Origin: Haplodiscus bocki
Taxonomy: Eukaryota
DNA length: 64,000 bases
NCBI GenBank assembly: GCA_965655095.1
Contig: OZ296659.1
Coordinates: 3,720,001-3,784,000 of the forward strand
Direction of reading: 5' to 3'
Shown: positions 5,581-60,812 of the stretch, in pieces
Layout: each line of letters starts with the position of its first letter
Numbering within the stretch: the stretch's first letter is position 1
Position numbers and translations under genes: made by a program
The notes under the pieces: model-generated
Databases searched by the model: none
Told to the model about the DNA's origin: nothing
What the model saw: only the letters and a program-made list of their open reading frames with translations

Positions 5581-5689
5581 GTTAGTTTTAGCATGTTTTC
5601 TATTTCTTAAGCGAATTGTTAGCAAAAAAATCAACTCTTGACCCTGTTGTTAAATTTGGTATCCACGAAATGAAAGTGTCATTTTTCAG

Positions 5690-5803
5690 ACGTACACTTC
5701 GAGGCAAGTCGGGACGCCTAAACTGCACGAACGAATGGAAGAGATTCCTCAGCCTGCTCATAAGTGTGACTGCTCCCAAATAAAGAACAGCCGTGTCTCC
5801 AAA
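5690..5803 (+). CDS. POGLUT2: POGLUT2/3 penultimate coding exon (TYTSRQVGTPKLHERMEEIPQPAHKCDCSQIKNSRVSK)
   Basis: tttttcag acceptor after a 109-bp phase-0 intron. Retains the family's Y..Q...P....M.....CxC tail. Donor AAA|gtaact at 5803/5804. Confidence 0.88.
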
Positions 5804-6193
5804 GTAACTTTTTGAACGTTTTTTACTTCAACTTTCAAGCTCAAAAAAAATCTTACTTCGCCAGAAAGTATAAAAAGCCCTTTAAAAAGTTTTCCTTTCT
5901 ACACATTCTGACTGAAAGAAAGAATGTGTATTGGAAACCGGTTGATGCTTAGTTTTATCCTGTCCAAAACTTGGAATTTTTTGTCGTAATCAGAGAGTCT
6001 ACTCATCTAGTCTAAATGGTCAAACCGGCCATTTTTGACAGACGCTTTTTAATTTTTACGTTGTTTATTGTGCAAACTTCTTAAACATTGGGTAGAAAAA
6101 TGGCATAACCTGAAAAGACATGACTGACATGAGAATAGTTTGAATATGAGACAGTGTGGGCAGTCTATTGGGTGTCCCCAAAAGACCTACCTG

Positions 6194-6575
6194 AGTAGTT
6201 ACAAGAACCGAATTTGACTTCAGACGCGAGGATGCACTGCGTCCACGTCCTATGACCAATACCACATCCAAATTCGGCTACACAACTAAGACGCAGACTC
6301 ATATATTTTTCAATGTGTAATTTATGTATCAATGGGCGTACACAGGAATGATGATAAAAAATGAAACCTAAATTTTATGAAATTATTTTGTTATGAAAGA
6401 TCGTTTTTACATAAAATTTTTCCGAATAGTGCATCAATGGGGATACACAATAATGATGATGAAAAAAAACTTGTTTTTTTTTTGAAAATTGTTTTCACAG
6501 AAATATATTCTGCATAGTTTTATGCCAGCGGAGCTGACAGTACACAAAGTGTACATAAGTGGGAGTATACAAATT
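6194..6575 (+). repeat. P2 left TIR
   Basis: Near-identical inverted match to the right end (GACTTCAGACGCGAGGA.GCACTGCGTCCACGTCCTATGACCAATACC), then ~110-bp tandem units with an ATCAATGGG..TACACA core. Confidence 0.9.
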
Positions 6576-6608
6576 CATACAACGGTACAATTCTGAGAAC
6601 ATAGAATA

Positions 6609-9400
6609 TCAATTCCAAAGTGTGCTTTCAGTTTTACCTAACTGATATCGTTTTTCATCAGAAGCAGATAATGCTTTTTTACGTATTTTTTGAAGATGCA
6701 TATCATGATAAATAGATTTTATAAAATAATTATCACATTCTTTTTGATATTCGTTTCCAAATAAACAATTATAATTTCCTTCAAACCTAATTAATTTCGT
6801 TTCTGATTTAGAAAAACTCTTTTGATTATTAGTATTTTCATTTCCACATTCGAATAATTATGCTTTATCTCTTAAACAAATAAAATCGTCTATCCAAACA
6901 TTTTTAAGAGTTTGAATTTTGAATTTACCAACCACCTTTTCGTTTTCATTTCTGAATAATTTACTTTCTTCGTTTAAATTACTAAAATTAAATAAAGCAT
7001 CCAGATTACATAAGTCGCTAATAAAATCGTGTGTTTTTACAGTTGAAACGAAACTATCTGTATCCATGTGATTTAATTGAATATTTTTTGTCCAAAGTAT
7101 GCTTGAAGATTATCATAATATGTTCCATACATTAGTAGTTTTGATAGTTCTAATATAGTAAATCCTATATGTATTGGTTTATCCCTCAGAATTTCGTTTT
7201 GTTCATATGTATAGCTATCATAATTGTCATAGGATTTACGAATACTAATGAATGTTGTCTTTGATTGCATTTTCAATATTTTGTCATCATCATCTTTTTT
7301 CATGAATTCTATTTTTAATCTGTTTCTAAAGTTTTGCATGAATTTACCATAAAAAGAGTAAACCATACATTTAGGAAAATCTTTATGAGAATCGATTTTT
7401 TGCTGCAGCTTGTCTCATGAGTATTAACATTTATGTATTTCTCTAACCATTCACTTTATATAAACGAAATTACATCATAAACTTTTTCAACAACCATACC
7501 ATGTTTAACATAGAATTTTTGAATCCTATAGTGAATCAATTTTTTTTGTCACTCCAATCACGAAGTAGTTTTTTACATGGTGTGTAAGTATTCGATTTCC
7601 TTTTAATCATATTGAGAGTGAACTTATAGATGTATATATAAATCGTCATTCTTTTTGTCAAATACTTTTTGGAAGACTAGATGACAATCAAAGTCACTAA
7701 AATTATGAAACGCTATTGGAATGAAATTACTTTGTTTCTGTTTAACGTTTTTATTAGATTTTTCATATGCTGGACCTCTATGCTTACCTGTCAAATGGCA
7801 TTGATCTCTAAACTATTAGAACCTATATTTTTCCAGAAAATCCTCAAATTTTATTACTTCTATATTGTTCATTATCTTCTTTATTCTTTATACTATCTTT
7901 CTTTGTGTTTTTAAAGAACGAATTCACTTTGTTTCTTGATCTTATCACTCCATTAACAAACCAATTTACATTTTCTCATCCTGAAGGAGATCTATAAAAT
8001 ACACTTTGCGGAACATCATAGAAATCTGAAAATTTTTACTAGCCATTACTTTACATACATGTATTTGTCCATGAATATAGTTGTTTTGTCTCCTATAGAA
8101 GAATTACATATTTCATTATCAGCTTCAAAATCTGCGTAAACTCTAAAGTATAGTGGATTTTTTGAAGATGTTTTCTCCAATATAGATGGGATTCGTTTGA
8201 TGTTTTAATAGGCGTTGTTTCTTGTTGTTCACAATTTTGTTTTTGCCTTAATAGAGACTTTTCATTTTTATGAGAACTTGAACATCGTCTACTTACATAT
8301 ATAGAGTCTTTTTTACCTGAAAATACATGTAACTTTTGTCGGTTAAAACAATGGTTTTTATATATCAATAAATCAACAACTTTATCCGAATCGTTTTTAC
8401 TGTTTTCAATTGGAATTAATTTATGTCTCCTTTCATTTCCATCTTGACAAAATTTTATTTCAAATATTTTGAAAGATACTTTATTTTCTCAAATATATAT
8501 ATACATCACTATATTTAAATCCAGTTGAAAAATCGAATCCTTCAATGTTTAATCCATTAAAGTAATGTGTATAAGTTGATACTCTATTAGGATTTGTTTT
8601 TTCACCGCGATGAAGATGAGCTAAGATTGATCAAAGTAATCAATTTTCTTCATCGTTTCCAATATTTTAAATAGCTGGACTAAATATTCGGATTTTCTTA
8701 TATAACTCAAACCTTTCAATTCACTAGTTTCATAGAAATATTTTGTCACTAATATGATTTTGTCAAATCTCCAATCAATATCTTTTAATTCCTGATTTTG
8801 TATTTGTCTTTCTAATTGAGATCGAAGGCCAATGATATCAATATCCGACTGTGTTAACTTTTGAATAATATATAAACTTTTTGATAACTCAGTTTCATCT
8901 AGTATCTGATCATTTTCATCCTGTTCATCAAATCTTGCTGAAAACACTGTTTGATTTTCCAATTTATATTGATTTTTTTTATTCCTGCATCTATATTACA
9001 CATGTATTCTATATAATCAATCTTTTTATTTCAAACATGTGTTGTGGTGTAATGGTAATTTTTGAGTTATTATGAATAATATGATGACTACCTAAAGCAG
9101 TAATAAATGCAACAGATTACTTTTTAGCAATATAATAAAGACTAATCATTTTTTTGGCGATTTTTGTAAGTAGTTGTTTATCATGTATATCAAATTTTTC
9201 TCCTGCTATTTCTTTTCATTTATCGGGATTATATCTTTTTGGTTTGATTTTATCAATTCGTTTGTTTCATGAAAAAAAATAGATTGAATAATTTTTTCAC
9301 CTTCCAAATGCTTTTTTTTCAAATGATTTGGTAGTGATGCTCTATGAATATCAGTATTGCAAACATAACATTTACGGCATGGTTCATTTTGCGTCTCCAA
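6609..9400 (-). pseudogene. P2 pPolB with N-terminal Zn finger and endonuclease-VII-like insert; internally deleted
   Basis: N-terminal CYVCNTDIHRASLPNHLKKKH; RSQLERQIQNQELKDIDWRFDKI; VRDQCHLTGKHRGPAH (~7765-7812); motif B SFYGKFMQNFRNR; KPIHIGFTILELSKLLMY; motif C MDTDSF. Motif A region appears lost at a deletion near 7635. Many stops and frameshifts. Confidence 0.9.
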
Positions 9401-10677
9401 TTTTTAGTATAAAAGAAGCTTGAAAAGATTTTCCTGCAACCTCATTTTTCTGCCCCTTCTGATAACTTGAAAATTATAGTGTCATACAATTCATAGTGTT
9501 TTTGTCTGGAAAAAATTCATTAATAACGAAGTTTCGTCCATAATCATGGCTATACGCTGTACATTTTTCTTATAAGAGCCTTCTTCAAATTGAAATTTTG
9601 CGTTTTATCTGTGGTAATTCATCTCATCAAAATGGTTGCTAATATCCTGATAAAGTTTCAATTTTGTTTTACCCTTCAAGTTTTGCAATTTCTTAGTCCT
9701 ACAACTTATTGTTTTGTACTTTGTGTTCATCTTAAAAAATCCGTTTCCTTAATCTTTTTTTAGCATAGGGTAGTCTTCTAGAGAAGTTTTTGTTCTGTCT
9801 ACGTACTTTTTATCTACCTGTTGTTTTTATTTATTAACAAAAAATTCACAGTTCTGTCAAAATTAAACTTGATCAAACTCTATGATTGAGCGTTGTTTAG
9901 CACAAGGACAATCTCAGTCAAATTTAGTTTGTTCATCAGATTTTTGCTTTTTGTTCGATTTTCTTCTTGAAAAGAATTCAACTTCTAATTTGTCATTTTC
10001 ATTTTCAGTAATTTTTTGATTTCGTCTTGTTTCTGTTTCATTACTACCTCGATATTGTAATCTGAGAGACTTTGGTTCATCTTACTTTCGCATTATAATG
10101 TTTTCAATGGGCTGAATCATCAATGTTTTTTTTGATTCTATGTAATACTTATTGTTCAAAATTTTCCTACGAAAGCGGATAAAATAGAAGCGGATAAAAT
10201 AGATCAAAGTATTTTATATTTTCGTAGTATCTACAGAAATATGCAATCCATTTCTATAATCTCACAGAATTATATCGACTTTTTGAAGTACATTTTGCTC
10301 TTCTTGACAAAAATTTTGTTCAAATGTTTCATCTATATTTCTTTAATTTTCAACAGTTTCTTCTTAAATGTTTATCTTATTTTTTTAATGTTGTTGTTTT
10401 TTCAATCAATTTATCATGATCATCACCATCAAAAAAATTTCATACACCAATACAACTACAAAATTTTTTCTGCCTATTCTAACCGAGTGATGAAATTTAT
10501 TTTTTTTACGTTGAACTTTTTAATTTCATTTTTTGCTTTTATAATTTCATATCCGGGTGAAAGACACTTCCATTTATTTTCATGTTGTAATATTGTATTT
10601 CTCAATCAATGCATGCATCGTTTAAAATATTTTTCAACATTTTGGTGTCCGGTTATTTCCATATATTATTAATTACT

Positions 10678-11522
10678 TTTTCTAATCGAATTTAGTTTTT
10701 TGATAACTTGACTGTTTTCGTCTAAGCTTAATTTTGTTGGTCTTAATGATATTTTTTATATCTTTTGAATAAACAGTTTGTTCGGTCTGAGGGAAGTGTA
10801 CTGTGTTTTACTCCCGTTAGTGTATATAATATGTAGCGCCAACTTGTACTAACTCTTTTTGAGAAGTTCTTTTAATATCTGCAGTTGTAAATAAATCTAA
10901 TATAATTATTGGTTTAAGTTTTTCTATTTTGTCTTGGAGATTGAAATATACTGTTTTTTCAGTTAGTCTTTTAGAAGCTTCGATTGGTGTCTTTTTCGTT
11001 GAGTGGTGAATGGTGTCCTTGTACTTTTTCCTTATATATGGTAATTCACTTATCCAATTAGCATTTCCTTTTTCATATACTGTTTTTTCGAATAAATTAC
11101 GTATCCTTCTAATGACTTGTTTTGCTCGAGAAGGTCTTTCATCAGTAAATCGTGAGGTATGTTTATTAATGGGGCTGAAGAATTTTTAAAAAGTTCTTTT
11201 ATAAAATTCCTTCCGACGATCGCTTTCTTTTTGTTTGGGTTTCGTTTTGAAGTAGTCAGAATAATTGAACTTTCATCTGTTATTGTTTGACTATATTTGT
11301 TTTTCAAGGAACCACACCAATCCTATTTTCAGAAGTTATCACTGATGATGAAGATATAACTAAATCCTTTGTTGTTTGAAATGCTTTATTCTGATATGTC
11401 CATGAAATCAATAGACCATTTTTCATCAAAATGAGTATAGATTATTTTATTCATTAGAGAATTTCTTTAGGAGCGGTACTTTATATTTCATCACTGAAAA
11501 TCTTAGTCAAGTCCCTCTTCAT
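10678..11522 (-). pseudogene. P2 retroviral-like (rve/DDE) integrase
   Basis: MKRDLTKIFSDEI...WSIDFMD...KNKYSQTITDE...IHHST..TPIEASK...DLFTTADIK...LRPTKLSLDENSQVIKKLN, read across frameshifts. Confidence 0.85.
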
Positions 11523-12190
11523 TTAGTTTGAGGGATTGATAACGTTTTTGAATTGTAATCTGAAATCGAGAAAACTGAGTTTTCTACCTTTTTTGAGGTG
11601 ACATTTTTTAAAGAGGGTTGAGTATTGATTCAATTGAAAGCTGTTGTCAATTCTTCACCTTTAGATACATCAAATGAAGAAATTGGTTTTACATGATCGA
11701 TTTCAATAATTTTCCGGTTCATGTTTGGTGTCATTTGAAACTCTATCCATTTTCTATAGATTTCAATACCTCTTCCTATTATATCTATGGAAGAAGATGA
11801 TTTTAATTCACCATTTAGAGCGTGATAGATCCTGCATTTTGTGTTATGACCGAAACGGAAATTAAGATCCGTTTGAATTTTGTTTTTGATATCTTCATTC
11901 ATTTTTCCTGTTTTCGGATTTGTTTTTTCCGTTTATTATGTACTAAATCGAGATTTGAAAATACATGATCTAATTGTTTCGGAGTTACTGTATCGTCTTT
12001 TTCATCATATCATTTTTTCTGATGATTGAGTTCTAAATCACGATTTTCATTACAGTTATTTTTCTATAATCTTACTCACATTTTTTACTTTGTGGGTATA
12101 GACCATTTTTCCTTTTTCTGTCTTTATGAAACTTAATTTTCAATCAAATTGATTTTCATTTGAAACATCTTTCAACTAGATCCTATTCAT
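11523..12190 (-). pseudogene. P2 HNH-type endonuclease
   Basis: QTDLNFRFGHNTKCRIYHALNG...WIEFQMTPNMN...EIDHVKPISSFD...AFN*INTQPS...H. The DH..P / N / H pattern resembles HNH proteins of large DNA viruses. Confidence 0.7.
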
Positions 12191-12244
12191 TTAAGTTTTG
12201 AATTGAACTTTTCAGTTTTTTGTAAAAATTTTTTTTAAATGATT

Positions 12245-12800
12245 CACATTACTTTATATCCAAAGCCGTTTCTGTGCATGTTCGTCAAACTCAAAGTTTT
12301 ACCCCCCGAGAGTGATTTTATAATATTTTTTGTAGCCTGACCCACTTTGGCGTTTTTCAATGTAGCTCCAACAATCATTCCGATTAAAAGCAGCTGTTGT
12401 ACTAACTGCCGGTTTTAAACGTTCATTCCATGCTTTTTCAGTCCCTTTAAATAATTTTTTCAGTTTACTTTTAGAGCCCTTGCCTACTGGGAATTGTTTG
12501 GAGTAGACGTTTTTTTTATGACAAATACCTTTGCCATTAAGACGCTCATCATGTCATTTCAGAACAGTTCCATTGCTATTTAAATCAGCCCATGCTGAAT
12601 GTGACACAAAATTACAATGCCCATTTTTACAGCTTCCTCTTTTGTCAAAATCTTGTGCTTTAGTCCTTTACTTAGTAAAAATTTTGCTTTTAGTTCGCCC
12701 ACAAACACTACAAGTACCTTTGATAACTTTTACAAGTTTTTTAGTTTTTGGATTTACTTTTTCTTGTACATTTTGGTGTACAGTTGCACTATGATTTCTA
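12245..12800 (-). pseudogene. P2 small Zn-ribbon ORF plus basic core/pX-like ORF
   Basis: KVIKGTCSVCGRTKSKIFTK*, then a Cys/His segment and ...LFKGTEKAWNERLKPAVS...GMIVGATLKNAKVGQATKNIIKSLSGGKTLSLTNMHRNG. Confidence 0.55.
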
Positions 12801-12929
12801 CTCCTGACACACCATCTCTTGGTCATTCAGGTACTAAAAATCATATTCAGGAGGAGCAGTCGCTTCAAAAACTTTGTTTTCTCTTTCTAGGTTTAAAATA
12901 CTTTATATATTTTTTTAAATTTTTTATTT

Positions 12930-13530
12930 ACATCATTCTGCTTAAAAAAATTACAAATTTAGTTGTTTGTTCAGTTAAAATACCCTCATTACCTAGAACA
13001 TCTCCGAAAACATTTTCAACTGAAAATTTTAAGCATTTCATGATAAGTCCACGTTTTTCAAGAAAAGGTTTGCGTATATTTTTTATTTCCTCTCCTTCGT
13101 TTTCATCGTCTTTTTTAATCTACCTTTGATTTATTTAAACTTTTCTCTTCGTAATGTAAGTTTTATCCAATCGCGTAGTTTTGTGTACTTCATTTTAAGT
13201 TTCGAACGAAGTTCGTTTGTGATTAATACTGCAAGAGTGATTATAAATGAGCTAAACCCACCGATTGGGATTGCAACTGGAGCTGTTGCCCTAGCAGTTA
13301 AAACCGTTTTAACGGCTCAAGCTCACTGCTTTTTAGAGTTTCTGAAACAAGCAAAAATATTTTTTTTTACAAAAACTTTATTCTTTATAAAAATCATTAT
13401 CAATCTGCCGTGGTTTCAAAATATTTGCGTAGTCATTTTTTCTTGTTTTGGATTTTGATATTTTAGTTTCATCATCTTTGGTTTTTATGTTTAAAAGTAC
13501 TGCATCTCCATTCAATTGAGAAAATGGCAT
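12930..13530 (-). pseudogene. P2 membrane-type protein (hydrophobic hairpin flanked by Lys-rich helices)
   Basis: TVLTARATAPVAIPIGGFSSFIITLAVLITNELRSKLKMKYTKLRDWI on the - strand; resembles the conserved Polinton/adintovirus membrane-active ORF. Confidence 0.5.
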
Positions 13531-13984
13531 TTTTTTAAATGGAAAAGTTCAATCGAATAATTGTAAAGCTATGTATTGTTTTATTGTTTTTTGTCTATGT
13601 AGTTTTTCTAGGGCAAGATTTTTTGTTTTTTTTGTTTCACGATCCGTAAATCCGGTTTGTTTTAAGATCCGTTCATCTGTTAAGCGTAGTAATAAAAATA
13701 ACAATGTTTCGTGTCCTAAAGCTTCGAAAGGAACTGCAAAATTTGATCATCAAAATTTTTCTCGATAAATGGTTCTTCTGGATCTTTTATATAATCCAGA
13801 TAATCATCATTTTGTTCAGTTAAGAATTTTCAAAACTCTTCATAAAAACGTTTGATGTCATTTCTTAAAAAACCACATTCAATTACTAAATCATCATCTT
13901 TTTTCAATTGAAAACAATAATACAATCTTTCTTTAATGTGGGGTTGATTCAAGTTTATCTTTAAACTAATTTACATTAAGCAAT

Positions 13985-15279
13985 AAAAATACAGAATATG
14001 GTATGATAATATTACTAAAACAAATGTCAGCAAGAGCTGTATCTATTTCAACATAATAAAACCTAATACCTTAGTTGGAAATAGTGAAATCTAAATCTAA
14101 TAAATTCCATTCTGCCGACTTAGCGCTGTATCCATTTTTTTTCAATAGTGTATTAAGTCTCCCATTGATTATCTGGTGATAATAATTGTATTCGAAAACG
14201 ACCCATTGCTTTGTGAACGCCCTCAGCTGAATATCTATTTTAATAAAAACCAACATTAGTAATTTGGATAAAATCTAGTCTTTCGGAACTAACGAAAATG
14301 TTTTCATTGCCAGAATTGTTTGCTCTTGTTTCAATAGACATGACGCTATCTCCTTTAGGAGGTTTATTGGTAGCTTTTTTGTTTCCCGTTGGTGAGTTCA
14401 TTTCTGTTGATTTTATAAATTTTTGTTTTATCCGCTATTAGTTTTGTCGAAACTTTTTATATTCCATTGTTGTAAAAGATAACCTCCTGTATTTGGGAAT
14501 TTATTCTTTGTTGTGTCTGTAGTTTGTTCTCTGTTATATTCTCATAGGTTATAAACACTATCACCGACCGTAACAGTGAATTATTTTCCAATAGTTGCGT
14601 TACTTCCAACAAGTGTCCTATTTCCATTATTATCATCAAATTTTTTTTAATCGTCACTCCAATATTTGAAGTAGGATTGTTGTTTATAGTTTGGTATTGA
14701 TGTTAGTTAATTTATTATCCTTGAAATCCTCATCTTGATCATTCATTACTGAAGACAAATCACGTCTACATATATCGTTTTCAAATAGAGAATCAACATA
14801 AGCTTTGGTTGCAGCGTGATTTTGATCAGTGGGTTCAGAATTTAAAGCTATATGTGATAGATTGCTTGAAGAGTGGTTGTTAAAGTCAATATTTTTTCAA
14901 TTCCTGCCAATGATGATTCGTCTATATTTTCACCAACCTATTTTTTTGGTGCTAAATGTCCTCCTTTTGCGGGATAAGAGTTTACTTCAACAAAACGAAC
15001 CTTGTCGTGATTTTTGTCATTGAAATCAATTTGTGAAGTGTTTTTATAAGGCTTAGATCGTTTCAACTTTTTATCAACCTAGGCCTTTCGAGCAGCTTCT
15101 TTTCAATGCTTAGGATCAGGTGAATTTTCTTTTTAATTTTCGTCGTTCGTATCAGTATCTTCTTCAATATTTTTTTAAATACAATTAGTTCTTAAGTATG
15201 GTTTTCGAAAAAATGTTCTTGTCTCAAGTTTATTTTATACATATTGTGATGTACTACCAAATATCCCTTTTATCAGCAT
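13985..15279 (-). pseudogene. P2 fibre/spike-like protein
   Basis: Repeats EAARKA*VD (~15073-15099) and EPTDQNHAATKAYVD (~14793-14838), then a beta-rich C-terminus (..AMGRFRIQLLSPDNQWET...WNLLDLDFTISN..ADICFSNIII). Confidence 0.55.
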
Positions 15280-15656
15280 TTATTTAGCCAGAATAATTTT
15301 TTAAAACAGCATCATAGTGATCCATTCCTTCTATTAGATGGAAAAAGTTTCAACAATAATTCCCACAAAATTTACTATTTTTGTCATGAATTTCAAAATT
15401 ATGAAGAGATTTTGGTTTTGATGATTGTTGTAGTAGAAATTTATCAGGTTGTCCATCAAACAAATCAAAATAATAAGATTCGTTATCTTTTACGTATAAA
15501 CAAACTCAATGTGTTCCGCCTAAGTGGCCGGCTTCGATGTTTACTTATCCTTTGTCACTAGTTATTTTAGAATCTCTTGGATATTTTTTTGCTCTTTAAT
15601 TATTTAGTTAATACGCTTTCTTTCATTGTTTCATCTCCGAATCCATATTTGTTCAT
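15280..15656 (-). pseudogene. P2 adenain-like cysteine maturation protease
   Basis: NIEAGHLGGTH*VCLYVKDNESYYFDLFDG...EIHDKNSKFCGNYC: the His/Asp/Cys motifs of the adenovirus/Ulp1-like protease. Confidence 0.85.
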
Positions 15657-15681
15657 AACATCTGTTAGACTGAGAGTTGAC

Positions 15682-16816
15682 TTATTTCTTTAACTTCGAG
15701 TGTTGTGTTTTTGTTCTCGTCTGAAACCATTTCAAGTTCCCTACGTCTGAAGAGGTTAATAATCTGTCATTAAGATGAGAATTATCAGGCTCACCTCTAT
15801 ATGCTTCAAATAATTGACTTTCCATAGGGTTTATGTGATCTACCTGAAATCCTGAATGAATGACTTGAATACGATGAAATTTTCTCTTATCAGGATATGT
15901 TATAAATGGGTTCATTAATGGTTCTTTAGCACACGCTTCGTAAAATAATTTGAGTTGGATGGAGGTAATCATTTGTATGATAATTAACGTTAACACAAAT
16001 TTTAGGATTCACTTTATCGATTTCACAAAGTCATTTTCAAACATCAACATAATCGGAAACTGAAATATTAATTGCTTTGTTTGCAGGTCCTGCTTTAGCT
16101 TCTGTTTGATGTGCTGCTGTCAATTTTTTAGTTGAATTTGCATTGACTGCTGAGCTTATATCGACTTGTTATTCTGATCCCGTGTTAACGACTTTTCTAT
16201 CTGTTGCCCAAGAGTGTGTAAACAATATTTTGCAAATCATTTGTTTTGAAAGTTTTTTGAAAACCTAAACCTTTTGTTCTTTTTTAGCTGTATTTTAAAG
16301 TCCAAAAATTTGTTCCATTGGTAGTTGACCGACTATTTATCGTTTGTTTGCTTGTAATGTCTGGTTTTCGATGAGTATTTCATTCAACGATGTGTTTTTA
16401 TTATTATCTTCATTAATTGCTTCAAAGTATGATGAAAAGTTACCGTCTTTACCCGTTGAAACTCGCATATAATTTGAAATAGTGACAATTTTTTTTCTAT
16501 TTCTATTGTTGATCCTTCTGTTGTCGATATGATAGCTTCTTTAAAAACATGTGCGAATGCGTTACTTACCAGTGTAATGGTACTTGTACTACCGTCTTCA
16601 AATTTACCACCGTTTTTTCTGAAGAATGTTTCAATTTGAAGGTAAGCATTACCTATTTGGTAGAAATTGTTAATCTCTGCAAAAATGAATTCGATATTTT
16701 TATCAGAATCATTTAATTGGGCTATTTGTTGATGATATATCTAGGCAAAATCTCTTTTTATAATCCATTTATCAATTAATGCATGATCCCATCAATTGGA
16801 AATTTTCAACAGTTAT
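15682..16816 (-). pseudogene. P2 major capsid protein (double jelly-roll)
   Basis: IIKRDFA*IYHQQIAQLNDSDKNIEFIFAEINNFYQIGNAYLQ...NAFAHVFKEA...LPMEQIFG...LKLFYEACAKEPLMNPFITYPD...FQVDHINP. Size and position are typical of a Polinton MCP. Confidence 0.75.
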
Positions 16817-16967
16817 TTATATACTATAAAGCTTCCTCCTGACAATAAATTTTCTTTGAATGTTTTTAGACTTGGGGGAAGATAATTTGATGGTTTTTCA
16901 GGTTTGGAGTTTTGTGATTCAGGTTTAGACTTAGTTTTAAAAAGTGACTGTATGAAGTCACAGATAT

Positions 16968-17737: not shown

Positions 17738-17749
17738 ATAAAATAGAAA

Positions 17750-18615: not shown

Positions 18616-18631
18616 TAGTTCTTTATTTAAT

Positions 18632-21091: not shown

Positions 21092-21179
21092 TACATGTGA
21101 ACGTTTCGAGTTCGTAAAACTCAAATCGGTTAAACGTAGTGAACATACATCGGAACTTTTTTCAAGCCGGTATTTTCCT

Positions 21180-21727
21180 GTCAGTCATAAAAAGTGAAAC
21201 ATCCATTGAATCGCAAAATTTTGAAGTTTTAGGTTCAGGTTATGAAAGTAGTTTACATTGATTTGACCGATATTATGCAACTTTATTTTGATGTCAAAAC
21301 TAGTATTCACAAGTCCTCATGATTGACAAGTGCGATGGGAATTTTTTGAAGCTGTTTTGACGTCTTGCTGACTAATTTTGGCCTTTTTGAGGGCTCAATT
21401 TGTTTTACATGTAACGTTTTTTTTGCATCACCTAGTCTTGTTCTTTTTTACGTTTTCTAACGTGATTATTTTTTAAACATTCGCTACAAAATGGAGTATC
21501 TAAGATGACGTGATTAACATATCGACTTTTCGAGTGTCAGACACCGTGGCAAGCACTTGTCTTAATTCGACTTCGGCGAACAACCTTTTGATAGATTTTT
21601 GCTGCCGTATTTTTATAGGTGTCAATCATGTAACCGATCAGTGTTCAATTGTCTTTCGGCCGTTTTGATTTGTAAACTATCAGTGATCAAGTCAGAATAG
21701 GTTGCGAAGTTCCACTTCGCCTCGGTG
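21180..21727. repeat. Dispersed repeat, copy 1 (copy 2 is split into ~26440-26740 and 32140-32420)
   Basis: Shared blocks ATCCATTGAATC and TCACAAGTCCTCATGATTGACAA (~21307/26581), AGACAC.GTG.CA.GCACTTGTCT (~21539/32281), CAAGTCAGAAT...AAGTTCC.CTT.GCC.C.GTG (ends 21727/32420). Confidence 0.7.
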
Positions 21728-22753
21728 TTCCAGTTTTTGTCTTTAATTTCGTTTTTTCGCGCTTTCCCAATCTTGAATGAACGTCACTGCTTGCTCTTGT
21801 TTCAAATAGTATCAAATTTGTCAGTTCAATTGGCATCTTGTTTTCCAATTTTGTCTTCCAATGCTATTCATCGCCTCAAAAATTTGTTGCTTCCCAAAAC
21901 GTCCGAAGATTGCAGCCTGTTCAATGCGCTTAAATTGATCACTTTGTTCCGAAGCTTTAGCAAGATTGCTTAGTTCGATTTTTAACCTCTTTTTGCTTTG
22001 TAAATTCATAATGCTTAGGACCTACTATCCTTGATGCCTATGTTTTGAGAAAAACTCCAGTTGATTACAATTTCGGAGGCAACGTTTTGCTGATTGTACG
22101 CAAAATGATACTGCGAGTAGGATTTTTTATTATTATTTAGAATAAATGGGAATAATTATTAATGGGGGTTTTGATGTTAGAAAGCGTCGCTTCGTTGTTT
22201 TGATGTGAGTTGATTTAACTTTCACTGAGGTGCATAGTTTTTTTAATGACTGGTCGGCATTTATAGGTGGAAAGCAGATCTCGCTACGCAGTGGCCGTCC
22301 AGAGGTATCAGGGGAGCGGAACCTGTTTTTTTGAAAAAAAAAGTTGGAGAAAAAGAAACTAGAGGCAAATTGCTTTTAATCAACGACGCTATTCGTCATG
22401 GAAGACGTGACGACAAATATAAATTCCTGATGCGTTTTTCAAACTTTTTTCGATAGCTTTATGTCTTCTGTGGTTACTTCTTTGTACGCAAATACCCTTA
22501 CCAGCGGCAGTTCTGATGACAAAAAAAATGATTTTTAACAAGATAACAGAGGTAATGTCGAATATCCAGGCTTCCAATGACATTGTTGATCCAATAAAGC
22601 GCCCGGAAAAAACTAAACAGCAGAGAAAAGTTCCTATAAAAGAGATATTGCACAATTGGCCAAGAGCCGGAGGAAGAAATCCCGTAAAGTTCAGGAAGAC
22701 TGCCAATTCGCCCAACCGGAGTTCATGGTCAAGACTGCATTGAGTGCGCACGA

Positions 22754-25700
22754 ATGAAGTGAAGACCACATTGATGGAAGGAGATGCAATGTGGCATTGT
22801 TATAGCTTTAACAATTGTGAATGTGGATTGTAAAGTAGAATAAGATCATCATGTGCATTGTACCATCGTTTTTCTTTTGTACAATAAAAGCTTCGACTTA
22901 TGCTCATAAAAAGTTGGCTGACAGGTAAGCGGTTACGTGTGCGTGTGCATAAACTTTAACGCTATGGTTTGAAGTTAGCATTTCAGAGCGAAGTAATGGT
23001 ATAGAACGAACTAAGTAGTGACTATTTTCTAGCCACTACAACACCTCCCCAACTCAACTTATCGTATACGCAATTGATTAAACAAACAGTTAAACACGTC
23101 ACTCCACTTATTTTAAGACGGGATATCAAAGCGTTATGCCGATACAATCAACGCAAAGATTCATAGTTGTTTTAGTTTTCAGATATACGAAACATAGCCG
23201 TTCCAGTCTGCAATTCTTCTTTCAATCGAATTTTCCCTTCATGTATAGAGGGTTGGACGGTGGAAATCAAAACGCCCAAACCATTCCAGTTCGGGGCAGT
23301 TCTTTGTCGGTTAGACGCGCACTCTTTCACGGACTCCGCTCGTGTTGTAGGTGGAGGTATTCTGGGTGTATCATGCACTGTGAATTTTGATCCAAGATCG
23401 GGCTCGGCACGGTCACTTCGAGAGGTGTTAAGCTGTGGTTTCTCCTCACACTTGATAGGGTGAGCTGCGAGTTCATTATGCTGGGTGAGTTTCTGTGCGG
23501 TCTTTAATTCGTCATCAGTATTATCGACGTCATGGACCGGCGAGTGCTGAATGTTAAAACTAGGGACAACAGAGTGCATTGCTGCATGAAATTGATTCTT
23601 GTTTGACTGGTTGCGAGCTTTACCTTTACGGCAAACAGACTGCGGAACGGTAGTGTGCTTGCGAACACTGCTGGCTGGTGCTAATTTTACCAACTGCTTC
23701 AGCCTGATTGGCCCAATCTTGGCGTGTGTTCGTTTTTTTGGGTGACTTGCGTTTCGTCCATTTGAGGTGCTAGCACCATATCGCGCTTTGAAAGTCGGCC
23801 AGAAGTGGTTGTGCCTGTTGGCAAAAAGGACAGAGTGTGCGTACCTTCATCCAAAAATCGTCCGCGTTGGCGGTGAAAAACTGATTCAAGCTTGAAACCA
23901 CGAGCACGCTCGCGAACCGAAATAGTGATATTATTGTCGTGGGGGAACTAGTTCAGTTCAAGTTGGAATTTCGAGTCGTCCTCTGGAGTAGGAGCCCTTG
24001 AAGATGTCAACAGATGAGGACTGTTTTTAGGCTGGCGACCCATCTGCATTTGCTCTGGCGACTGAGCATTGTTTTTCGAAATGTCAGTTTTGTTCTTCTC
24101 GATGACAATTCGTTTGTTGGCCCGCAGTCGCTCAAAAAGAGTGCGAATGCATCTCTCTATCTTCCCAGTTCCTCGATGATCCTCAACCGGGCGCTCAAAA
24201 TGCTCGATAAACCGCTCACCAAAAAACGGACGAAACCGCTCCGAACCAAACGGCGATCCCGGGTTTGTTCTAATACGCCTGGAAACGCCTAAAAGAGCTA
24301 TATGGGTATGCAAAGACTCCAAAACCTTATCGGTCGTGGGCTTGCGAAGAAGTCTTGCCTCCGGTGAAATACTTTTTTAAATCTATTGACACTATCGAGT
24401 TTTTGTTTGTACTTTTAGCTATTTTGAACGGTCCCGCAAAGTCAATGGATTTCTCATCATTAAAATTCACAAACGCCAGGAACTTACCATATTGACCTTG
24501 TGATTTAATGGGTTCAAAATTTTTACCTGCGTCTGTAAATTCTTTGCACGTATTGACACAAAGAAGCACGTCATGGTGGATGTGCGGCCACCAGATATCC
24601 GATGATTTCCGAAGTTCCTGAACGCGTCCTGGGTGCCCCAGTGGAAGGACCTCTGAAGAGCTGTTCGCAGAGCCTTGGGAACCACACGGCGATCGTCCAT
24701 GTACTGAAAGACGTTCGGATGAAGCGAAAACGTAGAAAATTTCTCAAGTCAAGCCGCTGGGAGCTTCTGGATTTTGCTTTCATTGGGTTGCTCATATGGA
24801 GCGATAATACGCTGAAGTTCATCATCGGCTTCGTCATTAGCGATGAGAATTGTCTCGCCGATTTTTTGATTGGCAGGAGGGTGAGATGAAGGACGCGAAT
24901 TGACCGCTGAAGAAGAGGGCTGTCGTAATCAATGTAGTTGATTCCTTCAACGGAACTAGAAAATTAACAGCAATGGGCCGATATTTTGTTTACTCGTTAA
25001 CAGGTATTCAATAACTGCGCTATCAATTTCAAAGTGTGCTTTTCTGTTCAGAGCGAACACGCAGTTGTGCGCGTTCGGTCACTTCGCTTGCATTTGATTG
25101 GGTGATTGAATTCTCTTTAAAATTGAATGAAAAGTATTAACGTGATTGAATGTGAACCAGCTTTTCCCCAATTCCTCTGATTTAATCGCTTCGCCTTCAG
25201 TGGGTGAGGGATGCCGGGACAAGTAGTCGACAAACCCAAGTCTGCAGCCCGGCGCGGACAAAATCGAACTGAAACGGTAATAAGCAATCCATCCAACGCC
25301 TTAATCTTCTAGAAATCGTCATTTTGCGTCAATTCCCTTTCACTACGCTACCTAAATCTTTATGGTCCGGAATTACCTGGGTTTTTGTATCGTATACGTA
25401 GTTACGGAAGTGTTCGGTGGACCAAACAATGAGCAATGTTTCCAATTGTTTAGTTGAATACTTGTTTTCTAAGTCACTCAGAAACCGAAAGTGTATTGGC
25501 TGCCATTGGCGATTATTCTTCCGTTGCTGCAGCACTGCAGCTAAACCGGCGCGACTCGGGTCACAGTTTATTCGTAGATCAGCGTTGCGTTTAAAAAGTC
25601 TTACCTCCGCGACGTATTTGATGCTTGCTTTTATTTGGGGGAACGCTTTGTCTTGCTCCTCTCCCCAATCCCAACTTTTCGCTCTTTCTAGCAGAGGTCG

Positions 25701-25990
25701 GAATGGAAAAGAGTTTGGCCGGGTTGGGAATATATCTATTCATCTGGTTCAGCACTCTAAAAAATGAACGTGGTTTTTTCGAAGTTATCGGCTGCAAGTT
25801 GTCTCTATTAACTTGAACTTTACTAATTTTTGGCTTCATACCCGTCTGAGGAAATTGAAAGCCCAACCAATCGGCAATGTTGGCGGCAAAATTACCTCTA
25901 TCCAATTGTAGACGGAAACTCAATTTGTTCAATCTTTCCAAAACGTTTCTATTAAATTTGTCCATTTATAAGTGTGTAGAGAAAAGGAGA
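22754..25990 (-). mobile_element. Ty3/Gypsy LTR retrotransposon, 5'-truncated and decayed
   Basis: End of RT (VLERL...DWLGFQFPQTGMKPKISKVQ); RNase H (CDPSRAGLAAVLQQ...WQPIHF...KYS...LLIVWSTEHFRNYVY...PDHKDL; VDYLSRHP); integrase (IDFAGPF, IRTNPGSPF, GTGKIERCIRTL). Purine tract GGGGAGG followed by LTR start TGTTGTAGTGG at 23043. Distal LTR end is approximate. Confidence 0.88.
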
Positions 25991-26744
25991 GGCAAAAATC
26001 GGTCGCCTATTAGCCAGCATGTCATCTATTAGCTCAACGAATTTGAAATCTTTTGGGCTTCGAATGTGGAAAGTTTTTCAGGGTCCCTTGCGGAATTGAC
26101 GGCCAAATTTTCATAGCTCATTTCGCCAACTCCACTGAATATCTTAGTTTTCAAATTCTTATTTACGTTTGACGAATTGCCAGACTTTCTCAGTAGGGTT
26201 TTGGTTTCTTTCTGATAAAGGATGAACCGAACTTCTGCACCCAATTTTATGTTACTTATATGCTTAACGGCCGTCAAAGTGGATAGAGAATGATTTGTTT
26301 TTAAAGTTTCTTTTCCCAGTTTCGAATATGAAACGGCGTGTGCATTAGTTGTAACAAAAAATGTTACATGTTGAAAGTTGGAGCTCCTAGATTGGCTATT
26401 GTAATGTTTATGAAAAAAGCATGAGGACTTCTTCCAAATCGGCACAAACCGCCTGTCAATCACCAAAAGTGACATATCCATTGAATCCTAAAGTGTGGAA
26501 CGAGCATTTTAAGTTCAAACTATGCAAGTTGTTTACACCTATTTGACGTAATTTTTGCATTTTGGTGTTCCAACTGAAAGTCACAAGTCCTCATGATTGA
26601 CAAAATAGAGGCACTTTTGAAGTTGTTTTGATGTGTTTCAGGACATTTCATCTCCCTGCATTTTCAACCGCTACTCTTCCAACGCGTATAGTTTGGACGC
26701 ATTGCAACTTCAATCCATAACAATTTCAACTCCTTGCAATTTAA

Positions 26745-29700
26745 CCCCCCTATCGTGATGTTTTGCAAAGCTTTACCATTTTTTTAAGGCGAAGCTTGCT
26801 AACTATGATAATTGAAGCTTAGACCTCAATTATCTGATATAAATTAGTGGTAGTTGTATAACTTGAATGTAGCACATAGATTTCGGTAAATTAAGCACGA
26901 TTACTGTTCAGTTACTACGGTCTAAACATATATTAAACTTTCGGTTCCTACAAAACTGGATTGAGGTAAATTTTACCTACAAAATTTTTGGTGGACTTTT
27001 TGAGGCAGGTAACGATGAGGAGGTAAGTATGAAGGGTTAGTTGAACCGCGTGTTTTCAGAAACAAGTGTAGAATTTTTTGAATGAAACCGAGAGAATTGT
27101 TAAGAACCATAATTTTTGTATCGATAAAACTCCTAACATAATCATTCCTAATCGTTGCGTCCATTTGACTCGGACACAAATTTACACTATCCAATGGAAA
27201 CGATTGGGGTTATCAAATCCAACTGAGGTGAAAACTTGGCTTTGTTATATCGGTTCTTATTTTTTTTTTCGAGGGGACAGTGCATATCGATAGTTCGAGC
27301 AACGTATACATAATGACTTGGAGAGACGAAAGCGAAGCTCGAAAGTTGTGGGGGTTCCGAGACGGCAGATGTCTTGGAATTGTGACAAAGGATGAACTAT
27401 GTCAAACGGAAGAATTCAGCGTTCTGATCGTTGATACGCTTCTTGCTGTAGTCTCCCTTTCCAGTGTCCTTGAACGGTCCCCTTGTTTAGAATGCTTCTT
27501 TTGTTATAGACTTGCACCTGATATCACAGCTTTCCCCTTCCAGTGATTGCTCCAATTAGTTTTTGTAGTGGCTCGTTCTTTTTCCTTGTTACACATCCCC
27601 TTGAAGAAAATTTCGAGCTACGGAAGGGAGCAAAGCTAGTTTTGGTTTCGATATATTTCAAGGTGTCAGCCTTTAATTCTGGTTTTCTTCCCTTTTTTTC
27701 TCCGCAACGCGTTGCGGTAGTTTCGATCCACCGGTCGCAGCTCCACCTGTGCGTGAGAAGATTAGTGGAATGCAACTGCTCTGTTCGACATCCAGAATTC
27801 GTTGCTAGTTTTGCAGTTTATTTAGGTTTTCGTGAAATTTGTAGGGATCTTATGCTGTTTTTGACGTTTTGACTAGGGGATTTAAAAGTCTCATATCAAA
27901 GAAGTTTCGTGTAAAACTGTGTCTCCGTAGAACTTTTGCCTGAATGTTTCAGCGAGCCTCTTCTCTTGTAGTTAACTTGTTAAGGCTTTCGCCTTGCAAC
28001 GGTTAATGAAGAGATTACACTCTGACATCGTTGTACACATCTTCCGTCAGCTTTGCAATGGTTTCCTTGATTTTCTTCGGGCATGTATATGTCCATCTAC
28101 TTTTTGGACAATGCAATGGATAGGCAATCTCCAAATCATGGCCATATGGGCAAGTTTAACGTAGTTTTCCGGGCTCGATTGCGCGTCTCACTATAAGCAG
28201 TCTCGAAATTTTGACTTGTTCAGGTTGAAGCTATTTTTTGTTAGCGGCAGGACACAGCCAATTTGATTCTCCCTTTTCTGAAGCCACGCTAACAGCTAAC
28301 AATCAGTTTTTTTCTTTTTGGTCGGTGTCTCTAGGAATTTGTCTTTTTCGACTCTCAGCTACTGAGCTTTTTTTCCGCTTAGTTTCGACCGAAGTTTCTT
28401 TCTGATTTCATGTTGCTTCCGAGATGGTCTCACCAGTTAAGTGTTCTATAACGTTTTCAGACTATGAATAGTCTTCTGATTAGTCTGCTGGTTTTTGGAT
28501 GTTTTGGCAGCTTATCTTTAGTGGCGAGGAAAACATATCCCGTTCCACGTCCGTAAATTTTGGTTGGCCTACGAGCGCTGAGTGAATATTTTTGTTAGGA
28601 TTTACTCAATTTTGGCAAACTTCTTTGCCAACTGTGGTGGTCTTGTATTGATGAAAGGCAGTTTTTCTTGGACACCTCTTGTCAACAAGATTACGCGTTT
28701 TGTCGCGACGTGTTAGCTATTTGAGACATTTTCATTCAGAATTTGGTGATTTCGTCTGCTTTTTTTTCAGTGTGATATTTACGTGAGTTTTCGCTGCCGT
28801 TGACTGAGCCCAGCACTCTGGATCCATCTGACAATATTTGCTGTTCTCGAAAGGTTCTCCTGGTTTTGGAGATTGAGGCCTATTTGACAATGAGGTAGCA
28901 TTTTGAGGGTTTCACATCTTAACCGAAGTGTTTACCGTTTGTTATGACGTTCTCGAGGACGTGCTCAAATCCTCTGACTTTCGTGCCATTAATCCGTTAC
29001 CGGCGTACTACCGCTGCATTATTTGTTCGTTTTCAACGCTTCCTATCGGTAGAATAACTGCGATAGCATACATTGCGATAGCGGAAGGGTCTTATTGTAT
29101 TGTGCCTTCTGTTGGCAGCAGTTTCTTCCTATTGGCGAACAGAGTAAATGGCTTTCAGAACGAGTTGCACATTGCTTGTTACATTGCGGGACACAGAATT
29201 TTGCAGTTCTTTTCGCCAGTTTGTTGTTCATTTAGTTGAAGGCTTTATTCACGTCCAGTAGGAGAAGTGTTTCAGTATCGCCCTCGCAATTTTTCGGTGG
29301 AGTGAACCGATGGCGAAGTCAGTTCCGCACTTTTGTCCCAGACAGAGTTGCTCATTGGATCCCATTTCGAAAAGATCATGTGATGTATGTTCCGTGATGG
29401 CGCCACCAATTTTTCATTTAAGGACTTCTACACCTGTTTGACGAACACCAGGAGTTTTGTCTAATGGCACCAATCTGCAGGCATTATGTGCCTTGTTGCT
29501 CTACCGCAATAGCTTCAGTAGCTATCGGGCAGCATTTTTCGCAATCGTCTCAGATAAATGTCTCCACGCATCTTTGAAAAGAGTTCTAGTTCTTCTCCAT
29601 TCGTTCGCGTCGAAGCCAGATGGTCTTTAGCTTCAGTGTGTTTTCATTGCAGCTCTTCTGATGTAACTGACCTTGTTTTGTTCAAAAATTGGTGGATGGC

Positions 29701-32135
29701 TGGGGATTATTCAAGTCGACGGGTTTAAGGTGTAGTTTGGATTTGATGGAGAGGGATTGGTGTGTTTTGCGTTGGGGATATCTTCTACAGTTTCGCCGTG
29801 TATTGTGTAGCTCAAGGAAAGAATTTCTCTGGATTGCCATTCAGCAAGCAAGCCGCTGGCAAAGGAGATTTTGCCCGCTCCCCTCATCCTGCGGAACTTT
29901 TGAGTGTTGCTGGCATCACTCTTGTTCGAGTTTTTCGACAACCTCGACTGGAGAGCCTTGTCTTCGTTGACAGGAAGTTCGGTGCCTCTCTTTTTCCTTT
30001 GGCTTACCATCCGAGATTTCGTCCTTGCTATCGAGCCGTAACAAGAGTCTCCAGTTTCCGCAAGAAATACATGCGGTAGGGCCATAGTGGCTATCATGCT
30101 GAAACTACTCCAGTTTTTCATCCGCCAGAGGTTGCAAGAGAGTGTTGAGCTGGTTGACGAATTCGTATCCTGACTTGTTTTCGTCGAGAATGAAAAAGAT
30201 GGGATTCCGCTATACATTTTGGTTGTATATTTCAATTAACTTCCTAGTTTTGCATCTGTCAGGGATGCCCAGAAGCAGGAGCCTGAAAACTCGTTTGGGA
30301 CTGCTGTTTGAAGGTCTTCGGCTTGATTTCAGCAGAACATTCGGTTAAACTAAGTCCCTGCAAGTATTTATTACCACTCGTTAGACCGCTGCATGAAACG
30401 TGGAGATAGCTCAGGTATCCAATGCACCAGATTCCACCGCAAAACAGATGATTTTGCTGATGATGAAATGAGTCCTAGTGCTCATATAGGAAAGAAATTG
30501 ATCGTTTGTATAATTGAAAAAGGAAGGGAGACTGCACAGTGCAACACTGTGATGGATTGATGTCCAGCAAACGAGAAACGATTACCATTCTAATGTGTTT
30601 ATAAAGAAACCGGGTAAATAGGCTGAAAAGTTTGCGGTACGTGATTTCAGGTGGGATTCTATACAGCGCTTAAAGTTATAAAAATCTTGATTAATATTGT
30701 GACTTTTAGATGAAGAGATGCTTTTTGGAAGTATTCGAACGTGAGGATAGAACTTTTCAAAAGTAAGTTTCATTAAATACTTGCATGCGTTCGTTACTAC
30801 TTTGGGTGAGGATCTGCAGTCGTTGAAACCAGCTACCATTGTGACAGACGTCTACTTTTCCTGCTTGTGTTTTTCAAAAACTTTGCAAATGTCAGTCAAC
30901 ATTGCTCCTCTACGAATGTATTGTTGACTTGAAATGGGATTGGTTGATGTATTTCATTCTCGAGGCTTCCACTATTAGCTTCTTGATAATCTTGGAGCTT
31001 TCACTGGTTTCCACCTGCTGTCTGTGCCCTGTAGAAGCAAAGAAAGGGTGACAGCAACAATTGAGAGATTAATTGGTTTGTTAATTTCATTAAAAATCCT
31101 TCGATATTTTCTTGTGGTAATAGTTTCAATAGGGTTGGGCTAGTGAAATGCCAAGGGGTCGATTTTAAACGAAATATTTCAACCTGGCAGAAGGGAGGTC
31201 GTCTCCAGATCCAACAGTGCCCTGTCTACGGTGATCGCCCACTTACTTTCTGGGTCTCCCTAAAATCCCTCGCGGGCTACCCAACAGAATCTTTAATAAG
31301 AGGCTCAAACTTTCCTATTCACCTGTTTGTTAAGTTTTTTTTCACGATTACGCATCAATTAGGCCTGCTGGATTCATAAATTGTGAAACGAGCGGCAGCA
31401 TTTTCTACACATTGCTGTTGCAGCCAATATAAGATTTTAAGAAATAAAACAGCTTTGAAAACAGCAGGAACTGGGGTTCTGAAATTGTTGAAAGCAAAAG
31501 CTTTGATAGCTGCCTTGTCGAGAAGCTCGACGAGTTGGTAATATACTTCAAAAACTTTTAGTTTGAAATCTTTATCGCAAATTTGATAGTACAGTACCCT
31601 TTTGGGCTATGGGTTCAAAACAATGCGATCGTAGAGGGCGTAACCTGATTAACCAACAGTGCGGAAGGTTGGCGTTTCGGCTTGTTGCCTTTTTTACCTG
31701 ATCGAAGCCAAGTGTGTGCTTTTTGCTTGGAGAGATCGGTAAAGACGCAATTGTCCAGCAACTAAAATTTTATCCAAGAAACTGCGGGCCTAATATGTTC
31801 GGAGAGAGCGACTTGAGTTCCGTTTTTTTAAAAAATGGGACTCTGGGGGCAAGTACATTTACCCGAATGCCAAAATTAGTCAAACAGTTTGCTGTCAATC
31901 AATTTCGACAGAACTGACTATTATTGGCAAAGCCCTTCATGTTGACACTGGCTGTTAAAACGAGAAAGCCAAAAGCGTACTTTTGCAATGGGATGAAGTT
32001 GTATTGGGTTTAAGTTGCAAGGGTTTGAACTGGATGGGATGAAATGACGTGTAACCGTTTTGACGTTTGACTCATAACAAATAGTGCGCTTTGGTGCTCA
32101 TTTTGCTTAAAAAATGCATGTTTTAATATAGAGGG
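26745..32135 (+). mobile_element. piggyBac-like DNA transposon, decayed, interrupted by a CRE element
   Basis: TTAA|CCC at 26741-26747 and GGG|TTAA at 32133-32139. Transposase traces TEVKTWL (~27225), NAIVEGV-(D)LINQ (YN..MGGVD..DQ-like, ~31622-31657) and WRFGLLPFLPDRSQVCAF. TIR identity beyond CCC is weak. Confidence 0.65.
27260..30950 (-). mobile_element. CRE-clade non-LTR retrotransposon (RT plus restriction-like endonuclease), decayed
   Basis: RLVPLDKTPGVRQTGVEVL...QLCLGQKCG; PTEGTIQ*DPSAIAMYAIA...IMQR*YAGNG (EGTTQGDP / WYADD-like); FRDCL...TCPYGHDLEIAYPLHCPK knuckle; KTSFAPFRSS..RG terminus; T10 run at 27260-27269 as poly(A) tail. 5' end approximate. Confidence 0.82.
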
Positions 32136-32811
32136 TTAAACTTAAACCGTACGCTTTTCTACGTGTCACCTAGTAGTGTTGTTCATTTTTGCGTTGTTTC
32201 TTGTGTGAATCTTTTAAACTTTGGGCTGCAAACTGGCGAATCTAAAAAGACATGTTTGACGCATCAACTTCCCGAGTATTAGACACTGTGACAGGCACTT
32301 GTCTCAATCATGTATCCGATCTCATTTCAAAAGTCCATCAAGACCTTTGGTGTGGAAACTTCATCTTTGGTCTCAACTGACAAGTCAGAATGTGTCGCAA
32401 AGTTCCGCTTTGCCCCTGTGTGCAATATAAATTCATGATATCGGAAGTTATCCAGCTAGTTTTGCTCATAGTTTATATTTGGAACCAAAATCATTCATTG
32501 TACTTTCAGTTTTTAAAGTAAAATCTGTTAATTGAATGATTATATCAAAAATTGCTGTCGGAAACGTATGGACGCCTAACTTTATCATAAGCAGTCTCGA
32601 TTACTTATTAAATAGCAGAATCTAGCAAAAACGCAATTTTTTCCCAAAAGTCTTCCTCCAATTTTTTGAGCATTAACCTTTTAGTTGAAGACCTGTTGAT
32701 TTTGCGTTTTCAGGATTAAGTTTTTTAAATGTAATTTTGAGACCATTCAGCTTGTCTTGTCTACTTTTGGATTGGTTTAATCCAGTTCCCTGAACTTCAA
32801 ATGTGTTGTAG

Positions 32812-32823
32812 GATGAATTGTAG
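32812..32823 (+). CDS. POGLUT2: Predicted last coding exon of POGLUT2/3 (DEL*), completing K-DEL
   Basis: tgtgttgtag|GAT GAA TTG TAG. A phase-0 join to ...TCC AAA|gt at 5803 gives ...RVSKDEL*, the family's hallmark C-terminus. Confidence 0.75.
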   Translation, partial: DEL

Positions 32824-33058: not shown

Positions 33059-33064
33059 AATAAA
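33059..33064 (+). promoter_or_regulatory. Candidate polyadenylation signal of POGLUT2/3
   Basis: AATAAA ~235 bp after the predicted stop, followed by T-rich sequence. Confidence 0.45.
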
Positions 33065-59527: not shown

Positions 59528-59529
59528 TG

Positions 59530-60811: not shown

Positions 60812-60812
60812 A

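Follow-up and report, generated by a model that had tools for sequence, protein, structure and literature searches.

The 64,000-nucleotide stretch analysed here (the window; Haplodiscus bocki, assembly GCA_965655095.1, contig OZ296659.1, positions 3,720,001 to 3,784,000 of the forward strand) carries the 3' end of a POGLUT2/3-like gene whose C-terminal endoplasmic reticulum (ER) retrieval signal, KDEL, is probably split by a 27-kb intron. The lysine closes the penultimate exon at position 5803, and the remaining three residues would come from a very small last exon beginning at 32812. We regard it as likely that this intron is an old one placed directly after the lysine codon, that the main transcript is spliced from 5803 to 32812 and ends in KDEL, and that the insertions now found in the intron came later and were tolerated. 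The gene family and the kind of Maverick element in the intron are known; what would be new is the gene structure, with an intron inside the retrieval tetrapeptide.

The identity of the gene can be read from its exons. Against Pfam, the sequence from 5326 to 5580 falls in the GT90/CAP10 catalytic domain (Glyco_transf_90, PF05686; E 2.2e-26). A search with this exon returned three proteins from 51 candidates: POGLUT2/3-like proteins from Convolutriloba macropyga and Symsagittifera roscoffensis, both of them acoels, with 71–72% identity to it, and one unnamed match. These matches by themselves would make an acoel the probable source of the window. The C. macropyga protein (P0001, 71% identical) matches human POGLUT2 (9w47) with an E of 1.3e-118 and POGLUT1 with an E of 2.2e-32, and its bit scores (400 for POGLUT2, 116 for POGLUT1 and 97 for Rumi) place it closer to POGLUT2/3 than to POGLUT1/Rumi. 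The following exon, 5690–5803, is 46–54% identical to the acoel relatives. No exon upstream of 5325 was found by tblastn within the window; the remaining upstream exons of the gene, among them those for the signal peptide and filamin domain expected at the N-terminus of this family, lie before it. The family places O-linked glucose on EGF repeats between Cys3 and Cys4. According to one account (PMC13756544), POGLUT2/3 proteins have a KDEL-like C-terminus and use UDP-glucose to glucosylate folded EGF repeats. The H. bocki gene resembles POGLUT2 and POGLUT3 (KDELC1/2) in its GT90 domain and, as predicted, in its KDEL-like end, and it would differ from them in having the signal cut by an intron after the first residue, an arrangement seen in none of the 38 metagenome loci described below.

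An initial annotation, made from the letters of the sequence, had placed an exon end at ...RVSK, followed after 27,008 nt by a DEL tail, a stop codon and a polyadenylation signal, and these coordinates proved exact. The donor reads AAA/GTAACT, the interval runs from 5804 to 32811, and the AATAAA stands at 33059. At the acceptor side, TGTTGTAG is followed by GATGAATTGTAG at 32812–32823, which reads GAT GAA TTG TAG (DEL, stop). If the donor were left unused, translation would run into VTF and the TGA at 5813–5815, as the same annotation had described. The 5803 to 32812 junction is very likely real, and a KDEL-like C-terminus is strongly implied on condition that this splicing takes place. A sequence-derived possibility may be mentioned at this point: skipping of the penultimate exon, from 5580 directly to 32812, would stay in frame because both donors are in phase 0, and would yield ...RVLEDEL, an EDEL-type end.

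The acoel relatives support both the POGLUT2/3-like identity and the K/DEL junction well. Their proteins terminate in KMEL and KMDL. Two isoforms annotated for C. macropyga under XP_075247887/8, X1 and X2, are the same through QNQNSK and then diverge: after the lysine, X2 continues with MEL, and X1 with 31 different residues that end in KFQL and contain no signal. From this divergence, an exon boundary at the same lysine, with a three-codon last exon, may be deduced for a second species. The comparison of intron positions among orthologues, which the initial annotation had proposed as a check, finds support in these predicted C. macropyga proteins; both isoforms of S. roscoffensis, XP_063726450/1, retain KMDL.

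The exact pattern formed by the distant site is rare. An AG followed by DEL and a stop codon matches once in the window, counting the two strands together, at 32812, where 0.017 matches would be expected in the 58 kb downstream of the donor; it was present in 5 of 300 simulations. When a looser pattern was searched on both strands, 8 of 100 shuffled sequences contained it. The three-codon pattern with any residue followed by D or E, then L and a stop, was observed on the plus strand once, at the identical site. Downstream of the donor there are 2869 phase-0 candidates for a last exon that start after an AG; 36 of them end in DL, EL or EF, and KDEL arises only from 32812. Two other phase-0 last exons, giving SKDL (24648) and WKDL (24642), lie within a Gypsy remnant, do not fit the three-codon pattern and were rejected. 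On their own, the chance statistics are suggestive rather than decisive for the 32812 junction.

The age of the split was approached through metagenome contigs, in which 38 POGLUT2/3-like loci were found. The last matched frame is continuous through the CxC motif to an xxEL or xxDL stop in nine loci, and two further loci have a contiguous signal in a last exon that follows an intron shared with 5581–5689; a break close to the residue of this short intron occurs in 8 of the 38. Altogether, the ER signal and CxC stand in one stretch in 11 loci, and 26 are uninformative. Since the C. macropyga isoforms part after the lysine and the tetrapeptide is split in none of the 38 metagenome loci, the simplest reading is that the post-Lys intron is a gain specific to this acoel lineage, and it looks older than its transposon contents. 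In one locus, L011, a 58-nt GT-AG intron (1625–1682) lies seven codons ahead of the stop; its spliced end would be NLKHIDL, its read-through end has no signal, and the intron is not found in the close relative L023. L011 would be another POGLUT2/3-like gene in which the ER signal sits, independently, on a short last exon, and most simply, introns have been gained late and close to the signal more than once.

Table 1. Features at the 3' end of the POGLUT2/3-like gene and within its predicted last intron (positions in the window).
Feature	Position	Strand	Remark
POGLUT2/3-like (KDELC, GT90/CAP10) coding exon	5325..5580	+	first base finishes an Arg codon
Phase-0 intron, 109 nt	5581..5689	+	GAG/GTTAGT ... 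TTTTTCAG/
Penultimate exon, 38 codons, phase 0, CxC motif	5690..5803	+	last codon is the Lys of KDEL
Read-through codons VTF and stop, if the 5803 donor is unused	5804..5815	+	TGA at 5813-5815
Predicted last intron, 27,008 nt, phase 0, GT...AG	5804..32811	+	sequence-based; boundary fits the C. macropyga isoform branch point
Maverick/Polinton fossil ('P2'), 14,898 nt, 55% of the intron	6194..21091	-	in reverse orientation to the host gene
Broken protein-primed DNA polymerase B gene	6612..8788	-	six pieces, three frames
First four sense AATAAA of the intron (candidates)	6760..7025	+	6760, 6879, 6991, 7020; inside the Maverick
Integrase-like remnant (candidate)	10750..11500	-	motifs seen by eye, X read-through; no library match
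Adenain-like protease remnant (candidate)	15250..15697	-	motifs seen by eye, X read-through; no library match
Broken double-jelly-roll major capsid gene	15772..16806	-	at least 3 frame pieces; identified through relatives
Packaging-ATPase-like remnant (candidate)	18900..19499	-	Walker-A-like GPNECGRS; by eye, X read-through; no library match
Decayed repeat, copy 1	21092..21728		copy 2 in two parts: 26365-26648 and 32028-32421
Remnant of a Gypsy-type pol gene with RNase H and an integrase zinc finger	24330..25739	-	RT_RNaseH_2, E 6.2e-19
Non-LTR reverse-transcriptase-like remnant (candidate)	28700..29899	-	X read-through, by eye; no Pfam/PDB match
Predicted last exon: DEL + TAG, then 3' untranslated region	32812..33064	+	DEL + TAG at 32812-32823; AATAAA at 33059, T-rich run behind

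More than half of the intron is a single Maverick/Polinton element, which the initial annotation had called a whole provirus. Both of its ends are indeed kept: the first 200 nt of the inverted ends give 171 matches, 28 mismatches and one gap, the (AGT)2 end motif is exact on the left (AGTAGT) and 4/6 on the right, and the flanks, TACCTG and TACATG, form a target duplication that is 5/6 alike. Its genes are broken. On the coding strand no open run is longer than 143 codons, so that the element cannot be called intact, and the polymerase has no counterpart to about 350 codons that are present in all five relatives tested. What remains of the polymerase is 35–67% identical to relatives bearing DNA_pol_B_2, among them P0132. 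The capsid gene is identified through the relatives P0208 and P0215; three of the eight longer relatives match PF21738, two of them above the cut-off, and the top match of an Atlas search is a double-jelly-roll cluster at 0.98. The integrase-, protease- and ATPase-like remnants found no match in Pfam, PHROGs or PDB, a minor capsid gene was not located, and no related locus was found in the viral contig scans. An HNH-like motif (IDHVKPIS...) was also noticed by eye within the element, at 11633–11932 on the minus strand, with no library match above the cut-off. The element is therefore a decayed, internally deleted fossil, preserved from end to end, and not a whole provirus. It shares with the Mavericks described in PMC8097293 the inverted ends, the AGTAGT ends, the 6-bp target duplication, a size within 12.7–24.6 kb and the polymerase and capsid genes, and 96% of the vertebrate loci in that account are eroded as well. 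It differs from these Maverick/Polinton fossils in that all its recognisable genes lie on one strand, with a big internal gap in the polymerase.

A run search turned up four runs from a single study, none of them listed as RNA, and their reads were compared with the region 4600–21700. All four behave as genomic DNA, with one contig unspliced across 5108–5925, and the runs are therefore uninformative on expression and splicing. Read contigs cover 30 of the 30 bins of this region. Depths over the long Maverick pieces are flank-like in all runs when set against the exon contig: 31–47 versus 32 in run X1, 9–12 versus 14 in run X2, 32–43 versus 51 in run X3 and 31–85 versus 44 in run X4. No empty-site joint was seen among the best 15 of 137; a joint from 5921 to 21403 was set aside, as one of its sides is merely 20 letters long. 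These data support the local assembly and the presence of the Maverick in the sampled runs, among which may be the source of the window. A high-copy repeat at 5900–6190, about 95 nt past the donor, stands out in all four runs: its depth adds up to thousands, loose ends occur at 5900, and the Maverick appears to have inserted at the edge of this repeat or within it.

Taken together, these observations can be arranged into the following history. The window would hold the closing part of a POGLUT2/3-like gene from an acoel, coding for an enzyme of the ER lumen by which folded EGF repeats are glucosylated. An acoel ancestor would have gained a phase-0 intron between the lysine and the final three residues of the signal, leaving a last exon of three codons plus the 3' untranslated region. 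The intron would later have swollen to 27 kb as the Maverick, Gypsy and other repeats inserted and then decayed. Transcription would run through the whole 27 kb, the intron would be removed, and the KDEL-ended protein would be retrieved to the ER. The insertions would be tolerated passengers, and late ones; antisense orientation and decay fit such a role. It is worth adding that introns of this kind are to be expected in acoels, given their repeat load and intronic transposons: in two genome papers (PMC9911081, PMC6451197), acoel genomes consist of 53–70% repeats, one of them contains 4.5% Maverick and 32,110 intronic transposons, and the mean intron of another is 2.5 kb. For the most part, this is a gene of ordinary make-up in a genome rich in repeats. 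Among the papers listed by literature searches that cover few subscription journals, none described an intron within a KDEL motif, POGLUT2/3 isoforms lacking the signal, or a Maverick in an intron of an acoel.

Several points weigh against this history. The boundary is deduced for one relative, C. macropyga, from two predicted proteins and not from DNA. Chance alone would produce the loose pattern of any residue, D or E, L and a stop after an AG about once in 58 kb (it turned up in 182 of 300 simulations), and the statistical case therefore depends on the exact DEL. The 32812 acceptor is middling, since 282 of the intron's 1269 AGs are YAGs richer in pyrimidines. The read contigs fall short of proving that the 27 kb are contiguous, and the region compared ends at 21700. 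Among the 11 metagenome loci with a contiguous signal, three match in one piece and could stem from transcripts, and the tails are identical within two pairs. Finally, a signal-less isoform is annotated in a relative, so that the present gene may be spliced in a way that is not wholly constitutive.

The weakness of the loose pattern and of the acceptor invites the thought that 32812 is a chance match and that the protein really ends in VTF, or is completed from a different acceptor or from an exon beyond the window. The other reading frames past 32812 are open for 52–69 codons; they match no Pfam family, however, and the rarity of the exact DEL, the poly(A) signal that follows it, and the KxEL/KxDL ends of the relatives with their boundary after the lysine make a coincidence improbable. 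An ATG-initiated frame of 52 codons (32813–32971, plus strand) overlaps the predicted last exon in a frame shifted by one base from that of DEL, and has no match in Pfam.

A different question is whether the split signal serves as a switch. The post-Lys intron could be a conserved, regulated choice in acoels, in which an alternative exon, intron retention or early polyadenylation would give a complete enzyme without the signal, independently of the insertions. The X1 tail of C. macropyga, ending in KFQL where X2 has MEL, is what such a choice would produce, and the GT90 domain of the C. macropyga protein finishes ahead of the post-Lys boundary, hence before the donor. In this respect, the catalytically complete, signal-less isoform foreseen by the initial annotation is plausible as to its domain; the isoform itself is known as an automatic annotation in a relative. 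PMC2140024 reports that, in reporters with KDEL-type motifs, position -3 accepts almost any residue and position -2 strongly favours E, with D partly active. There are also precedents (PMC9956579, PMC6245729): in the human P3H1 isoforms b and c and in crld-1 a and b of C. elegans, a KDEL end is present or absent according to the splice choice made at the last intron or exon. The likeness to the present gene lies in this last splice choice; the differences are that their last exons contain many residues and their isoforms are demonstrated, whereas here three residues, a 27-kb intron and predicted isoforms are involved. By this analogy with P3H1 and CRELD, a splice choice that drops the ER signal is possible. 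Yet tblastn found nothing in the window that corresponds to the X1 tail (best E 0.31), the S. roscoffensis isoforms both keep their signal, the P3H1 forms lacking KDEL are judged non-functional, and many ER proteins remain in the ER after loss of the motif (PMC2140024). With these points in view, a regulated choice is unlikely. An exported glucosyltransferase would meet little UDP-glucose.

It has further been proposed, in the initial annotation, that ER retention could be sensitive to the transposons. The insertions themselves would then control the choice, and poly(A) sites lying within the Maverick could be one means of doing so. The intron contains 24 AATAAA hexamers in sense and 43 in antisense orientation; 20 of the 24 fall in the Maverick, the first of them 945 nt past the read-through stop, and the last exon is 27 kb away. 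AATAAA is common, however, in DNA that is 70% AT, and within the Maverick 35 antisense copies stand against 20 sense ones. The element is old and broken, it lies antisense with flank-like read depth, the best joints include no empty site, and the boundary is apparently shared with another acoel. The proposed transposon-sensitive switch finds no support in these observations, and we consider control by the elements highly improbable. A combined version may be put forward as a long shot, in which an acoel three-codon exon toggle would work through poly(A) sites of the dead Maverick that give the skipped form, and the chromatin state of a fossil would set the location of the enzyme. If this were true, the toggle would place a Notch- and matrix-modifying enzyme, catalytically complete, either in the ER or outside the cell, and it would be the smallest possible change to shift an enzyme between compartments.

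The remaining 11.7 kb of the intron consist of a Gypsy pol remnant, a split repeat and a reverse-transcriptase-like stretch. The second copy of the decayed repeat is halved by about 5.4 kb of other DNA, which points to a nested insertion; library searches gave no family match for this repeat (21092–21728). The Gypsy insertion named in the initial annotation is upheld by Pfam, with a weak Integrase_H2C2 match (E 0.005, below the cut-off) after RT_RNaseH_2, but only as a remnant, as a direct-repeat search found no flanking pair of long terminal repeats (LTRs). The CRE and piggyBac insertions named alongside it are unconfirmed by any library: Pfam and PDB gave no match, neither to the reverse transcriptase and C-terminal restriction-like endonuclease of CRE nor to the DDE_Tnp_1_7 transposase of piggyBac. 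The candidate CRE label of 28700–29899 comes from reverse-transcriptase-like motifs seen by eye; the TTAA-flanked ends proposed for piggyBac (26741 and 32133) were rejected, being no better than shuffles (196 of 500). When the 85 stop-free stretches of at least 65 aa in the intron were compared with Pfam, two matched. X read-throughs of the Maverick and the distal intron gave nothing above the cut-off in Pfam, PHROGs or PDB, the stretch 31358–31606 had no usable match in the Atlas, and Rfam returned 0 matches.

Other Maverick DNA lies nearby. The end of another polymerase gene is found at 3–1370 on the plus strand, as a 349-codon open stretch with DNA_pol_B_2 and about 80% identity to many ENA proteins; being upstream of the exon at 5325, it probably sits, in sense orientation, in the intron that precedes this exon. 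A third Maverick-like element, of about 17.3 kb (44352–61686), has inverted ends that are 78% alike, AGTAGT on the left and a DNA_pol_B_2 piece at 46146–46874 on the minus strand. The Maverick of the last intron has no protein match to the two others in the window, and the polymerase at 3–1370 is of a different family. Combined, the three Maverick-type elements make up over half of the window. There is also a remnant of a Pao/BEL retrotransposon peptidase at 42064–42558 on the minus strand (Peptidase_A17, E 8.5e-7). Short tandem arrays rich in TGCAAGA stand in opposite orientation at 2437–2700 and 3830–3935, with a 31-nt unit at 2583–2688, and are perhaps the ends of a foldback-like element.

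For the biology of these animals, the old post-Lys intron with its predicted splice to the KDEL end would have several consequences. A last exon of three codons lying 27 kb away is easily overlooked in annotation, and an ER enzyme would then be labelled as secreted. The predicted junction would also illustrate that an acoel can splice over a span of more than 20 kb occupied by decayed elements, and the gain of an intron directly after the lysine may be a useful character for acoel phylogeny.

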